From Pseudomonadota bacterium (GTDB taxonomy: Bacteria; Pseudomonadota; Gammaproteobacteria; JAIEPX01), in contig JAKORL010000146.1 in assembly GCA_029777855.1 (NCBI GenBank), positions 7,704 to 71,703 on the forward strand: 64,000 nt of DNA. Direction: 5' to 3'. Position numbers: made by a program. Positions within the stretch are counted from its first letter, which is position 1; each line of letters opens with the position of its first letter. Below are positions 3,001 to 9,000 of the stretch, piece after piece.

Positions 3001-6000
3001 TTGTAATCACGAAAAATCAGTTCAAACATAATGTCGTCTGATAGACCGACATATTTCTGAAAATAATCATCTTCAGAAACCAAAAAACTAAGAGATTCAA
3101 AGACGCTGTTACAAGCACACACGTGCAGATTTTCGTTGTCAAACAGCACGCTGTCAAAATCAAATACATCGTATTAATTGGCATTGGTTTTACCTAAAAT
3201 TAGAAAATGGGGTTCTCGAATAACTTTTTAATTTGATAATCATTATTTAATTCTCTCGGGCTGTCAATAATATAGTAGAAAATGAGATGTAAGTTGATGT
3301 GCTTGATAGCTCCCGAAACCTTGCTATTATTCCGCCTGTTTTTGACAGTGGAATGATTTTCCTTTGCAAATTATTTTAACGTCACCGATGAGGTCAAATG
3401 AAAAATGATGATACTTTCCGTCTATAGGCGCTGATATTTGATATTTTCCTAAAGATTGTTTTGGAATTATTGTGCTAAAATTGCCGTGTATATCTGTGAG
3501 ATACGATATAAGAGTGGATTGATCACGTTCAATTGAAACGGCTTTTTTTGGATAGAAATTTGTTATAGTAAGATCAATTTTTCCACCAGGAGGGGGAGAC
3601 ATTTTAACTGATCCTGTAATATTAGAGTAAGGAGTTAATTGAAGAGCAAGTAATGTAATAATAAATCTATGTGCCATTTTCTCTACTCCCCATTACTTGG
3701 ATCAAGAAGCTTATTAATAGTAATAAAAATGAAGTTAGACTAAATGCAAAGATATAATAGAAAAGATGTATAGAATTGTCAAAATCAGGTCGATTATTCA
3801 TGCTAAAAAGATTCAGCGTTTCAAATGCGTTTCTGTATATGAATACACTCAAGATTATGGCGGTTGATCCAAAGAGACCAGATAAGATTGATAGAATTTG
3901 TACAACACAATTTTTTGATTTATAAATAATAAACGCAGAGCTATATATCAATGAGGTAATCAAGTAAAAATAATTGGTTACGGAACTGATTACTAAATCA
4001 AAATGTTTTAGCATAACTTCAGTGAAATGAGGATCCATATAAAATTTCCTCTAGCCATCTAATAGAATGGTGGGTTATAAACATTATTCTGTCAAATGGT
4101 AGCTCTGATTGTCAGATTCCAAGAGATATATCGAAGTAGATTAATATTTTAATTTATTAGGGTTTTCACAAAAAAGGCTTTCTTCTACTATAACTGAATT
4201 GCGAAGTTGGTGATCGAGAAATTGCATTTTTCAGTACCTGTGTTAAAAAACCTTCTATGAATCATCAGGTATTTTTGCTATAACTTCGCTCATGATTAAA
4301 TCATAGGCTGTTTCAAAGTTCCAGGAAATGTTGGAAGGTAGTAGAGGATGCATATCTGAACTGAAATCCTTGTGGTTTTTCTTGAGACTCATGTTTTTCT
4401 CGAATAATGCGCGAGTTATTTCTTCTTCTGCATGGAGGCAATATTCATTGAATATTGGAATGGTAGATTTAATGTCAATCATGTTATTTGATAATGTATA
4501 CCACCAGTCAAACAGATCTCTTCCCTTACGTCTTTGGTAAAGAGCTTTTAATTTTGTTGCCATTAATTCTTCTAAAACGTATGTTTTGACGCTGGCCGAG
4601 CCGGTGTGCCAATTAGATGTCATTTCATAATTTATAGATTTTAGATTTTTGACGTGAAAATGTTCCGAGGTATTGATTTCGATTTTTAGTTTTGCGGGTT
4701 CATTTTGAAATGTTCTATACCTATATATAAGTTTTGCAGATCGTTCGGTTTGTTTCCGTTGGGGTACTCCCAGCCAAGAATCAAGGGAATCACGTATCGC
4801 ATTGAATACTGTCCCAATTGGCGCGGGTTTAAGTTGGACAAGATCAATATCCTCACTAAACCTTACTGGTGGCCTAATGTACAGTTTGTTAAGGGCAGTA
4901 CCCCCTCGGAATGCTAGATTAGCTGTAATGGTTTCATTATTATACAGAGCAATTAAGGCTCGGCTAATGATAAGATCATGTTCAACCATGTTTAACGATT
5001 GCCAGGGAGCGTGTTCTCTCCATTGTAATATGAATTGGTTAGGAATCATAATCACTCTCGACGGTGGTGTTTTCAATAATTTTCCATTTTTTATTTCGAT
5101 TGCAGCCCGCGATGCTAAGCTCAGGGGTCGCGGGTATAAAATAAAGCTTTTGATTTTTTAAAAAAGAAAGTAATTTAATAAGTAATAATTCTTTTTTTTC
5201 ATTATCTAGAGTATCTATTTGATCTAATATCCAACCCAATCGTTGTGCCCATGATTTGGCATGTTGGGCTTTAGCAAGGGAGATTAATTTATCAGGGTCC
5301 AAAGTTTCTATTAGCTCGCTTAAAATTGTTGCTATCGCATTTATACCACCTATACGATGAGGATATAACATTAAATCCATTGCTGTGACTTCAGGTGATG
5401 AAATGTTCATATATCCTGATTTAACTGTAATGGTGTTTGAGGGAAGGTTGTGTATATCTTTCTTAAAAATAAATTCTATTGATACAGTGCCAATGTGTAA
5501 AGCGGGAATCTGTTTATTAACAACAACCTGAAAAATTTGAGGCTTTTGATGTGATGCTCCATGATACATCGCTGCAGATAACAAGCCGACATAATATTCT
5601 TGATCCAAGTACCTCATCAAAATAACAGCAAGGTCTGCGGCGGGAATACACCCCATTTGATGATATTCTGCAGAAATAGGCACAAACAAATTTTTTGCTG
5701 GACTAGCGATTTCTCCTTTTAATTTTAACCTATGAACTCTCGAATGTAGTGCTGCAGGCGATATTCCAAGCTCATTGATAGCTTGTTGGGCAGTGAAATA
5801 AGCCCTTCCGCGAGCTGTTAAACCTTTAATGTAGTCATCTAGTGTCATCATATGCCCAAAATAACGTTTTTCGATATTCTGGCTATATGATAGCTTAAAA
5901 ACGGGTTTCAGACAACTTTGCTGAGATATCTTAATGTGCATGGTGGGGCTCTTTGTTTGATTTTGTATAATAAGCATGATAGAGAACAAAGCGAAAACAT

Positions 6001-9000
6001 TCAAGTGTTTTTTTTCAAAAATCCAGAACTAAAGATCGTAGCGAAATCCTGCATATCCAATGAAGTTATCTTTTGGAGTTGATGTTTTATGGGGATTTTG
6101 GCTAAGTAATGGTGCGTGACGAGAAGACTTAGAATATAATAAGAGTTTGTATTCATTTAAGAGGAATGTGAGATGACTCAAATTCAGTTACAAACAGTTT
6201 CGTGTGAAGATTTGCATCAAAAAATGGCGGCGGGTGAGGCTGTGGTATTGGTTGATGTGCGTTCACCTGAAGAACACGCGAGTTTTAATATTGGAGGGCA
6301 GTTGATCCCTTTAACAGACTTGCATGGTCGTGCGTGCGAGTTAAATCCTGAAGATGAAATTGTGGTATATTGTCTTTCTGGAATGCGAAGTGCATCGGCT
6401 GTAGAGATTTTAAATTCGCTGAATTTTAAATCCGTGAAATCATTAGCCGGTGGATTAAAGGCTTGGAATTATTAACACTTTATTGTGCTAAAAAATTCCA
6501 ATGAGCCTCACGCAATCAGATTCTTGCTTTTTTATCAAAAATTGCTCTCAATCAGAAAACTTGTGATGGTTTTAACTGGTCGTGTGTGGCATCGTTCGTT
6601 GTGTCATCATCGGGACTTCCGGAAAGAAGACCTAATCCCGCTATAAAAAGCACGGAACCACCTGCAATCATACCCGTGGCAACTTTTCCACTAACAGCAC
6701 CCAATGGAGCTAAAAATACAGTAGAAATAGTGCCAGCGCTTACAGCTAAAATTAATGCTCCAACAATTGCGGTGACAAGTCCTAACAGCGCAAGACCCAG
6801 TGATATCCAAACAGCGGATTGTTGAGCTTCACATTTTTGGGCTGTTTTGGTCAGCTTGTTTAAATTATCAAGATTAGTTGGATTTTTAGCAGCTAATCCA
6901 ACTTGATGTTTAGCGTCTTCAAGCAATTTCTCTTGTTGACTATTAAGCCCACCTTGCTTATCAAGGGTGTCTAAAGCTTGATTAGCACGTGCTAAGGGAT
7001 CAGATGTGGTTTGTTTTTCAGCAGATTCTTTACAAAGACGTAATGATTCAGCTAGTGCAGCTTGTATTTCTTTTGATTGCGCATTATCGGGCTGTTCGGA
7101 TTTTCGACTATCCTGCCATTGTTTGGTACTCTCATCTAAAACCTTTTTAGATTCTTCTGGGTCAAAAGCCTTTTCTTTTGGTTGTGCTCCAATAATAATT
7201 TCCAGCTCAGAGAATAATGTGCGGCTCGTAGCAAAAGCATCAAAATCTTTGGTTAATTTCTCGTCCAAATCCAACCCTACTCTAAATGTAGGATTCAATC
7301 TTAATCTTTCTAGCAAACGATAATGGAAAGTATTTTGAGCAATATTGTTACCAATACTCAACAAGTAAATAGTGAATTGTGAAAGGATAGAAACATGAAC
7401 TTTTTCCATATCCCAATATTTATATTTTTTTTCACGGATTTTTTGAAGCGCCTGAATGAAACTTTCCTGAGGTAAGTCCGTTACAGGTGTGCCCTCTTTT
7501 TTCATTTCTTCAATGCAAGATAAGAGCACTTCAGCCAGCTCTTGAGCGAGCACAAATTGAAATGCGCGAAGGAAATGTTGACTTTGAAAGAACTCTTTGG
7601 ACAGCAAGGCATTACGCACTTCATTCGATGTGCATAATAAAGGTATCAAGCCAAAATTGTTTTTCGTCGTCAGCATTCTATCGCCGCTATACTCAGATCC
7701 GACTATACACAAATATACGCCTATCATATCCACGAAGCCCTTTCGGCATAATATATGTAGTGGAGTTTCTCCCGCTTTGTTTTTGGCCCAAGAGTGAAAT
7801 GTGGCTGAAAGGATATCGAGAAGTTCTATTTGTTGCTGCTGACAAACCAAATGAAAAACCGTGTTGCCTTTAAGATCGGCTGTGCCGAAATCCGCAGTGG
7901 TTAGTAGTGGCTTCAACGTCGTGAGTCGATCTATTTCATTGTTTGCACAAATTGACATTAACAACGTACGATTTGGATTGGTATAATATCGACGATCTAA
8001 AAAAGGCGCAAAACGAAAATTCGGTTTTACCTCTTCAAGTTTTTCCAATTGATCAACAGTCAACTCGCTGGTTCCATCACTGTTAATTAATTTATCGCGT
8101 ACTTTTAGCATGCACATTTGGAATAGTGATGGGACATGGTGAACTACGGCTATTTCTGGTATCGATTCTAGTGCTCCTACCATCCATTCCCTTTCATCAA
8201 GTTGTTTTGCTAATGCTAACGCAGAGTTTTCCTCGGCGTTTGTAGAGTGAATGGTTATGCTGTGATTGCAAAAAACTTTCAGGATTCCGGGCATGAGGTC
8301 AGAATTATTAGTCTCGACAACCCAATGAAGTAAGCCTGATCCAAGACGCTCTCTCTGAGCAAAATAGGTCGTTATTTCTTGTTGAAATGCAGAAAAATTA
8401 GTATCTGATCTCAACTTAGGATCCAAGAATTCCAACACTGTCTTTCGTGAAGATTCCTCAGCGATGTTTTGCAAGTATTTTTTGAACTGAGCATTGAGAT
8501 CCTTTGAGGTTGTTTCAGAATCTATCCACTGTAATATATAGCTTAATTCACGTGGTTTTAATCTATTGAATCTAAAGCCCTCTTTACCCAAACGCAGTCC
8601 TGCAACAACGAGTTTATTGGCAATTTTTTTATACAGTTCGAGTTTCTCGGATAATTCGATTCTGCCTTCATGATCTTCTGCAAGCCCTTGTAATTCGCTG
8701 GTGAGTATTTCAATTTGAAAAACAGCACATCCTAAAGGGCTGTAACCATCTCTCTCATTATAAATAAAGAGGGCTTTTCCATAATCGTGTTCAATAAAAG
8801 AATCGACGACATCATCGATGATTTCAACATGGCCGCAGTTAGCTGCCCAATGAAGAAGATTTCCATCACGTGGCGGTTTTTCAACGACAGGGATGGCGGG
8901 ATCAGGAAATAAGTCATCCAAAAAATCACCCTGATTTTCCAGTGTAGTTTTATAATAGGTCAAGAGACTTTGAGTATATTTAGGACGGTCTGAGTTGATA

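Follow-up and report, generated by a model that had tools for sequence, protein, structure and literature searches.

A predicted AbiE-family toxin-antitoxin operon in a variable segment of a gammaproteobacterial genome

AbiE systems consist of an antitoxin, AbiEi, and a toxin, AbiEii, encoded side by side. A locus of this kind is found in a stretch of 64,000 nucleotides (nt) from a Pseudomonadota bacterium (Gammaproteobacteria, JAIEPX01; assembly GCA_029777855.1, contig JAKORL010000146.1, positions 7,704 to 71,703). The whole stretch is called the window here, and all coordinates refer to it. The locus is very probably an intact, horizontally acquired operon of the AbiE family, with a COG5340 antitoxin and a DUF1814 toxin whose mechanism is proposed by analogy with homologues.

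The Two Genes

The original prediction placed an abiEi-abiEii pair with a 38-nt overlap at 4255-6004. These positions match exactly the two longest overlapping open reading frames (ORFs), 5039..6004 (321 amino acids (aa), TTG start) and 4255..5076 (273 aa, TTG start). The strand needs correcting, since both genes lie on the minus strand. The overlap of 38 nt holds only for the longest ORFs, and their TTG starts were rejected in favor of ATG starts. In the toxin ORF, matches to PADLOC hidden Markov models (HMMs) set in at residue 10, and in the antitoxin ORF at residue 53. Met-Ile forms the N-terminus of all 36 aligned toxin homologues, antitoxin homologues are mostly 268-270 aa long, and upstream DNA from five relatives aligns with the ATG at 5851 as the start of abiEi. 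On the basis of these HMM boundaries, homologue starts and lengths, and the upstream alignment, the genes are assigned as follows.

5039-5851 (stop codon included), minus strand: abiEi, predicted to encode an antitoxin of 270 aa that also represses its own gene, with a winged helix-turn-helix (wHTH) at the N-terminus and an AbiEi_1 antitoxicity domain at the C-terminus.
4255-5049 (stop codon included), minus strand: abiEii, a predicted 264-aa DUF1814 nucleotidyltransferase toxin.
5039-5049, minus strand: the 11-nt overlap between the 3' end of abiEi and the start of abiEii (junction sequence ATGATTCCTAA).

A public protein (P0001) is identical to the 264-aa form of the window toxin. The 11-nt overlap is also present in five relatives (L027, L028, L029, L030 and L031), and it implies that translation of the two genes would be coupled. 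In those five, and in all 11 genome relatives with sufficient flanking DNA, abiEi lies directly 5' of abiEii. The original reading, an abiEi-abiEii operon with a DUF1814 toxin gene downstream of that for a wHTH antitoxin-regulator, is supported by this gene order in relatives, as well as by the profiles, predicted folds and catalytic residues described below.

The Toxin

The downstream ORF is a member of the DUF1814/AbiEii family of COG2253-type nucleotidyltransferases (NTases). It matches the Pfam AbiEii model PF08843 with an E-value of 1.6e-33 and 117 bits (cutoff 22.5), and the PADLOC AbiEii model PDLC02294 with 6.4e-100 over model positions 1-260 of 260. The HMM search proposed as a check on the original prediction therefore identifies the toxin with both models. 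Judged from sequence, this profile support is far beyond chance. NCBIfam gave no match above threshold for either AbiEi or AbiEii.

Four NTase motifs have been described for the family: I, hG[G/S]; II, an Arg followed by DhD; III, KLxAaxxR; and IV, +DxxD (Dy et al. 2014, PMC3985639). All four are intact in the window toxin.

4843-4905, minus strand: NTase motifs I and II of AbiEii, with G49 G50 ... R63 x S65 x D67 x D69 (sequence FRGGTALNKLYIRPPVRFSEDID).
4507-4554, minus strand: NTase motifs III and IV of AbiEii, K166-L-K-A-L-Y-Q-R173 and R177-D178-L-F-D181.

The motifs GGTAL...SEDIDL quoted in the original prediction are located in this ORF, within the stretches AFRGGTALNKLY and VRFSEDIDLVQ (FRGGTALNKLY and VRFSEDIDLV). 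In an alignment of 36 homologues that are 54-66% identical to the window AbiEii, G49, R63, S65, D67 and D69 of motifs I and II are invariant, while G50 is kept in at least 90%. K166, A169, R173, R177, D178 and D181 are likewise invariant, and motifs III and IV fit the family patterns, with a Leu at the aromatic position of motif III. Degenerate NTase residues had been named as something that would speak against the prediction; since the motif residues are retained and, apart from G50, invariant, that objection falls away.

The functional importance of these positions is known from the AbiE system of Streptococcus agalactiae, in which the AbiEii substitutions G49A, R63A, D67A/E, D69A/E, K173A, R180A and D192A abolish toxicity (PMC3985639). 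Residues G49, R63, D67 and D69 of the window toxin even share their numbering with the mutated residues. A Ser/Thr phospho-acceptor position lies two residues before the first Asp of motif II. It is occupied by S65 in R63-F-S65-E-D67-I-D69, and corresponds to phospho-T65 of S. agalactiae AbiEii and to S78 of the Mycobacterium tuberculosis toxin MenT3 (preprint 10.64898/2026.01.19.700257).

The AlphaFold 2 (AF2) model of AbiEii has a mean predicted local distance difference test score (pLDDT) of 95.1 and a predicted template modeling score (pTM) of 0.90. Among PDB structures, Foldseek matches it to Helicobacter pylori JHP933 (E 4.8e-8), to M. tuberculosis MenT4 (6y56; E 1e-7, query-normalized template modeling score (TMq) 0.69) and to MenT3/TglT entries. 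At the sequence level, a toxin-family profile detects JHP933 (6e-4) and MenT4 (6.6e-3) as well. GGT...RFSxDxD is spaced identically in the window AbiEii and MenT4, and the motifs GGTSL...RFSTDLD of MenT4 and RFSEDLD of JHP933 align with those of the window protein.

The Antitoxin

The product of the upstream gene belongs to COG5340/AbiEi and has its antitoxicity domain at the C-terminus. This assignment comes from the Pfam model AbiEi_1 (PF09407, 1.1e-35), the PADLOC AbiEi model PDLC02282 (1e-83, model positions 1-259 of 260), and Foldseek matches to M. tuberculosis Rv2827c and S. agalactiae AbiEi. A profile of the antitoxin family found no match among PDB sequences.

In the AF2 model of AbiEi (pLDDT 92.2), residues 4-58 form the succession H-H-H-E-E (H, helix; E, strand), and the N-terminus matches winged-helix proteins in Foldseek. 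Over its full length the model matches Rv2827c, also known as MenA4 (1zel; E 1.3e-8, TM 0.66/0.61). S. agalactiae AbiEi (6y8q; E 3e-7, TMq 0.39) covers the antitoxin partially. A predicted N-terminal wHTH is thus supported by the modeled secondary structure and by the fold matches to Rv2827c and AbiEi. The model also weakly matches nucleotidyltransferase folds, such as ANT(2'')-Ia, 5uvd and JHP933, in agreement with a prediction of an NTase-like C-terminal domain in PMC7319586.

Because of these fold matches, the pair is placed, as modeled, in a long-antitoxin, MenA4/MenT4-like branch of the AbiE family. A loop with the pattern G98-x-x-H101-Q102-x-P104 is invariant in AbiEi homologues. It is a candidate equivalent of the D85/E86/I87 loop of S. 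agalactiae AbiEi.

Promoter and Candidate Operator

Two features are found directly upstream of abiEi.

5887-5915, minus strand: a promoter-like site with a -35 box TTGTCT (5915-5910), a 17-nt spacer and a -10 box TATCAT (5892-5887).
5845-5896, minus strand: a candidate AbiEi operator made of two inverted half-sites of about 22 bp with a 5-nt spacer.

The promoter is a consensus match only, with 9 of 12 positions matching in the scan. Its T-T-G-T and TATCAT/TATTAT positions are kept in an upstream alignment with five relatives, whose AbiEi proteins are only 56-64% identical to that of the window. The roughly 50 nt before the abiEi start hold most of the 31 invariant columns of this alignment, and sequences farther upstream barely align.

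The operator candidate is the palindrome ATCATATAGCCAGAATATCG-AAAAA-CGTTATTTTGGGCATATGAT, with 20-nt arms that are complementary at 16 of 20 positions. An equal palindrome was reached in only 2 of 500 shuffles of the upstream region. Its left arm overlaps the -10 box and its right arm includes the abiEi ATG. Each of the five relatives has this palindrome too, with arms of 24-28 nt, 70-82% complementarity and a spacer of mostly 5 nt. The resulting half-site consensus is TTATCATATGcnCAAAATaayG, and a pattern search recovers both half-sites. More distant relatives (L005/L006, L009 and L002/L003) have significant inverted repeats at -40 to -55.

Similar repeats are bound by AbiEi proteins elsewhere. 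The S. agalactiae operator, for which binding was demonstrated experimentally, consists of inverted repeats IR1 and IR2 with 23-bp arms and an N3 spacer (PMC3985639), and Rv2827c also binds inverted repeats (PMC7319586). By this parallel, the palindrome is a candidate operator to which AbiEi would bind.

A Variable Genomic Segment

The pair lies in a segment that differs between related genomes. The gene order in this part of the window is hemC, a DUF188 gene, the 5.1-kb segment, a rhodanese gene, a gene for a 1040-aa ankyrin-repeat protein, rsmI, a solo AbiEi-like gene, lpoA, and a gene for a 2198-aa protein resembling leucine-rich repeat (LRR) proteins. The segment and its counterparts are as follows.

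1050-6155, no strand: the variable segment specific to the window, which lies between DUF188 and rhodanese and was delimited by blastn against relatives.
L024 (RsmI 96% identical): a 479-aa ATPase between DUF188 and rhodanese; without the ankyrin gene, with the solo abiEi.
L025/L026 (RsmI 85% identical): nothing between DUF188 and rhodanese; without the solo abiEi, with a phosphoenolpyruvate (PEP) carboxylase gene between rhodanese and rsmI.

In blastn searches L024 matches both flanks, 1-1049 at 91% and 6156-6474 at 88%. L025/L026 match them as well, but 1050-6155 does not align. The segment contains the abiE pair, two small ORFs and decayed gene fragments, and has a guanine-cytosine (GC) content of 34.3%, compared with 38.2% for the whole window. 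Because the segment varies between relatives, is lower in GC, and carries small ORFs and decayed fragments beside the pair, the pair is, on this comparison, accessory and horizontally acquired. No flanking direct repeats mark an insertion around the segment, no transfer RNA (tRNA) gene was found in the window, and there was no Rfam match in 900-6600.

A decayed gene at 1324-1750 on the plus strand is broken over three short ORFs and weakly resembles DUF4143 (Pfam 3.7e-5, below cutoff). The fragments at 1086-1750 were considered as remnants of the L024 ATPase, which was rejected on a negative tblastn result. At the left edge, the self-palindromic 20-mer TGTCTTCCCGGGAAGACAAG occurs in three copies 34 nt apart (1094-1181, plus strand) and nowhere else in the window, with a chance expectation of about 0.01. 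Two overlapping small ORFs, 3667-4038 and 3327-3677, follow abiEii downstream at a distance of 216 nt, likewise on the minus strand. They encode proteins of 123 aa (predicted membrane-like) and 116 aa, neither of which has a Pfam, PHROG or PADLOC match. A third small ORF beside the pair gave no match to these collections either.

Relatives and Prevalence

Among the candidates scored, this AbiE subfamily has at least 8000 homologues of the toxin and 699 of the antitoxin. The best relatives among GTDB species representatives are 45% identical, and none of these representatives is a match to the window itself. Proteins exactly like those of the window were found in one 75-kb NCBI contig and in a few Logan assemblies. 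RsmI of the window is about 60% identical to proteins of named Gammaproteobacteria and Moraxellaceae metagenome-assembled genomes. Annotated hosts of homologues include Legionella brunensis, L. nautarum, Legionellales, Paracaedibacteraceae, Dependentiae, Melainabacteria and Bacteriovoracaceae. AbiE has been ranked as the fourth most abundant defense system in prokaryotes (PMC11375011). The original prediction had called the pair notable in an intracellular bacterium with a reduced genome. This claim is not supported. Since homologues number thousands, those of Legionella and of amoeba- or host-associated lineages included, and since AbiE is so abundant, its presence in the window is not surprising.

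Two relatives illustrate where such pairs can be found. In Legionella brunensis (L002, 6277-10421), an abiE pair whose toxin is 45% identical is flanked by a serine-recombinase/resolvase-like gene and, on the other side, by a 502-aa ORF, which hints at a mobile-element context. In ENA contig_61497 (L030, 4060-7956), a related abiE pair has a complete aspS (598 aa) on one side and a 3' fragment of aspS (97 aa) on the other, which suggests that the cassette entered at the aspS 3' end and that this end of the gene was duplicated.

Proposed Mechanism

tRNAs are the substrate of the MenT toxins and of S. agalactiae AbiEii, which attach nucleotides to them and thereby block translation (PMC7450476; PMC11375011; preprint 10.64898/2026.01.19.700257). 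MenT1, MenT3 and AbiEii are neutralized by an antitoxin-induced auto-phosphorylation of the Ser or Thr in the active site (PMC11375011; preprint 10.64898/2026.01.19.700257). Because of this mode of neutralization, AbiE, historically labeled type IV (PMC3985639), has been reclassified as type VII (preprint 10.64898/2026.01.19.700257; for the related MenAT systems, PMC11375011). The label "type IV" in the original prediction agrees with historical usage but is now contested by the auto-phosphorylation seen in S. agalactiae.

By analogy, AbiEii of the window would act as a nucleotidyltransferase on the 3' ends of tRNAs in a Mg2+-dependent reaction, leading to a reversible arrest of translation and growth. 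AbiEi's C-terminal domain would counteract it, most probably in that it binds the toxin and induces auto-phosphorylation of Ser65, as in type VII systems. The N-terminal winged helix of AbiEi would repress its own promoter via the palindrome that extends from the -10 box to the start codon. If the supply of AbiEi failed, for example through phage-induced host shut-off or through loss of the segment, free or dephosphorylated toxin would stop the cell. The outcome could be abortive infection or stabilization of the island.

Several observations weigh against this reading. The identity to every characterized member is low, 12-19% in structural alignments, and single-sequence phmmer searches against PDB sequences found no relative for AbiEi or AbiEii. 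The wHTH regulator of the original prediction stands on the AF2 model and on the fold match to Rv2827c and AbiEi, but the Pfam model for the N-terminal wHTH, AbiEi_4, reached 19.5 bits, below its cutoff of 25. There are no phage or prophage genes nearby and no PHROG matches in the window. S. agalactiae AbiE gave no protection against any of 32 coliphages (preprint 10.64898/2026.01.19.700257). Finally, neither a stable complex nor phosphorylation was detected for MenAT4 (PMC11375011), although MenT4, the closest fold, has the same RFSxDxD serine. Neutralization may therefore differ from auto-phosphorylation, and the Ser65 step is, in this branch, likely but unproven.

Alternative Explanations

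The pair may be a selfish addiction module, in which a working toxin-antitoxin system only stabilizes the acquired segment by post-segregational arrest and has no anti-phage role. This is a serious possibility, if somewhat less probable than not. The segment is strain-specific, lower in GC and littered with decayed fragments; apart from the abiE pair, no recognizable gene in it is clearly intact. Relatives occur in unrelated contexts, such as beside a resolvase in L. brunensis and apparently at the aspS 3' end in L030, and S. agalactiae AbiE gave no phage protection in Escherichia coli. Against this, PADLOC lists the family as a defense system, and preprint 10.64898/2026.01.19.700257 summarizes that Lactococcus lactis AbiE aborts phages of the 936 type and that related DUF1814 systems protect against T7. 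Addiction and defense are moreover compatible roles, between which the sequence does not discriminate. "Abortive infection" is a family name, and because S. agalactiae AbiE gave no coliphage protection, a role of this locus in phage defense is uncertain.

Neutralization could also follow a non-canonical, MenA4-MenT4-like route without a stable complex or phosphorylation, AbiEi acting on the target of the toxin or through its NTase-like C-terminal domain. The best fold matches of the pair, Rv2827c and MenT4, point this way, as do the antitoxin length of 270 aa rather than the 195 aa of the S. agalactiae form, the weak NTase-fold matches of AbiEi, which agree with the domain prediction in PMC7319586, and the result for MenAT4 (PMC11375011). 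Yet S65 is invariant, which fits the auto-phosphorylation model proposed for COG5340-DUF1814 pairs, and a likeness with a TM of about 0.65 does not establish a common mode of neutralization. On balance such a route is unlikely.

A broader version of this idea concerns a widespread long-AbiEi subfamily, whose pairs combine an antitoxin of 270 aa with a toxin of 264-270 aa, overlap by 11 nt and have a conserved palindrome that takes in the ATG: as a whole it may work unlike the S. agalactiae paradigm. The chance of this seems slim. Such a subfamily may neutralize its toxin by a MenA4-type route instead of by stable binding and phosphorylation, and an operator containing the ATG may couple transcriptional repression to control of translation initiation.

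It is very improbable that the pair is a decaying, non-functional remnant whose intact frames are only a transient state before loss like that of the neighboring fragments: the part of the segment at 1050-4250 is gene-poor and holds a broken DUF4143-like gene, and the 96%-related strain is without the pair, but both ORFs are full length against the family HMMs, every catalytic or family-invariant residue is kept, the non-coding operator and the 11-nt overlap conform to the consensus of the family, and both models have a pLDDT above 92.

An intact AbiE operon with the mechanism outlined above is the preferred reading.

Neighboring Genes

The ankyrin-repeat gene beyond the rhodanese gene (6552-9674, minus strand) is also strain-specific. 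Its 1040-aa product has a C-terminal hydrophobic region. The gene appears to be of the effector type and to sit in a variable part of the genome: rhodanese and rsmI are adjacent in L024, while the PEP carboxylase gene occupies the site in L025/L026. Two giant ORFs are present on the plus strand, 13395-19991 (2198 aa) and 53397-59699 (2100 aa). The first has an F-box-associated LRR-like Pfam match at the cutoff. The ankyrin and LRR giant proteins suggest an association with eukaryotic cells.

A second AbiEi-like protein is encoded in the window.

10833-11666, plus strand (promoter region 10775-10832): a solo AbiEi-like gene encoding 277 aa, without an AbiEii partner.

This gene is inserted between the divergent rsmI and lpoA. 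Its product matches the PADLOC AbiEi model PDLC02267 (3.9e-69) and Pfam AbiEi_1 (5.8e-7); with the AbiEi of the pair it shares 23% identity. The gene is present in L024, with 24 synonymous and 14 non-synonymous codon differences, and missing from L025/L026. Upstream of it, a near-perfect 16-nt inverted repeat flanks a TTGACA -35 box, which is followed by TATAAT. The arrangement suggests an autoregulated orphan regulator, and the protein could act in trans on the abiE pair.

Significance

The pair is an uncharacterized addition to a well-known family with all hallmarks kept, and its meaning beyond annotation is limited. Three details are modestly new: the start codon lies within the conserved candidate operator of the subfamily, an overlap of 11 nt is conserved, and genes are gained and lost between strains at this site.

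Find further members. The operator consensus of the subfamily could be used to search for additional systems of this kind.

Mode of neutralization. A MenA4/MenT4-like pair from a different phylum could help to resolve how MenAT4 is neutralized.

Integration hot-spot. The interval between the DUF188 and rhodanese genes is a small site where accessory genes such as abiE and the ATPase come and go, in a poorly known and probably eukaryote-associated gammaproteobacterial lineage.

Comparison with Known Systems

Streptococcus agalactiae AbiE. Like the window pair, this system is bicistronic, with abiEi first and abiEii overlapping it. Its toxin has DUF1814 motifs I-IV with the same numbers (G49, G50, R63, Ser/Thr65, D67 and D69), its antitoxin has two domains (wHTH and antitoxicity), and its promoter contains long inverted half-sites. 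The two differ in the length of the antitoxin (195 aa there, 270 aa here), in the overlap (4 nt there (PMC3985639), 11 nt here), and in that the right arm of the window operator includes the start codon. Sequence identity is below phmmer detection.

Mycobacterium tuberculosis MenA4-MenT4 (Rv2827c-Rv2826c). This pair gives the best full-length fold match for the antitoxin and the highest TM for the toxin. It shares the long form of AbiEi with extra C-terminal helices, and the toxin spacing GGT...RFSxDxD. Rv2827c autoregulates via inverted repeats (PMC7319586), to which the candidate operator corresponds. Identity is nevertheless about 15-17%, and Rv2827c uses two sets of inverted repeats with four sites and negative co-operativity, whereas a single palindrome is found here.

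MenA3-MenT3 (Rv1044-Rv1045, TakA-TglT) and MenA1-MenT1. These toxins share the DUF1814 fold, and S78 of MenT3 and T39 of MenT1 are equivalent to S65. Their toxic activity is nucleotidylation of the tRNA acceptor stem (PMC7450476; PMC10435456; PMC11375011). The antitoxin MenA1, of 7 kDa, is unrelated. In electrophoretic mobility shift assays, MenA3 failed to bind the DNA upstream of its own gene, where no inverted repeats were identifiable (PMC7319586). Foldseek TM scores are lower (0.53-0.61).

Helicobacter pylori JHP933 (PDB 4o8s, 4ok0). This protein gives the best Foldseek E-value and the best sequence-profile match for the toxin, and shares RFSEDLD and a motif IV of RDLFD. It is shorter, with 225-232 residues in the solved chains.

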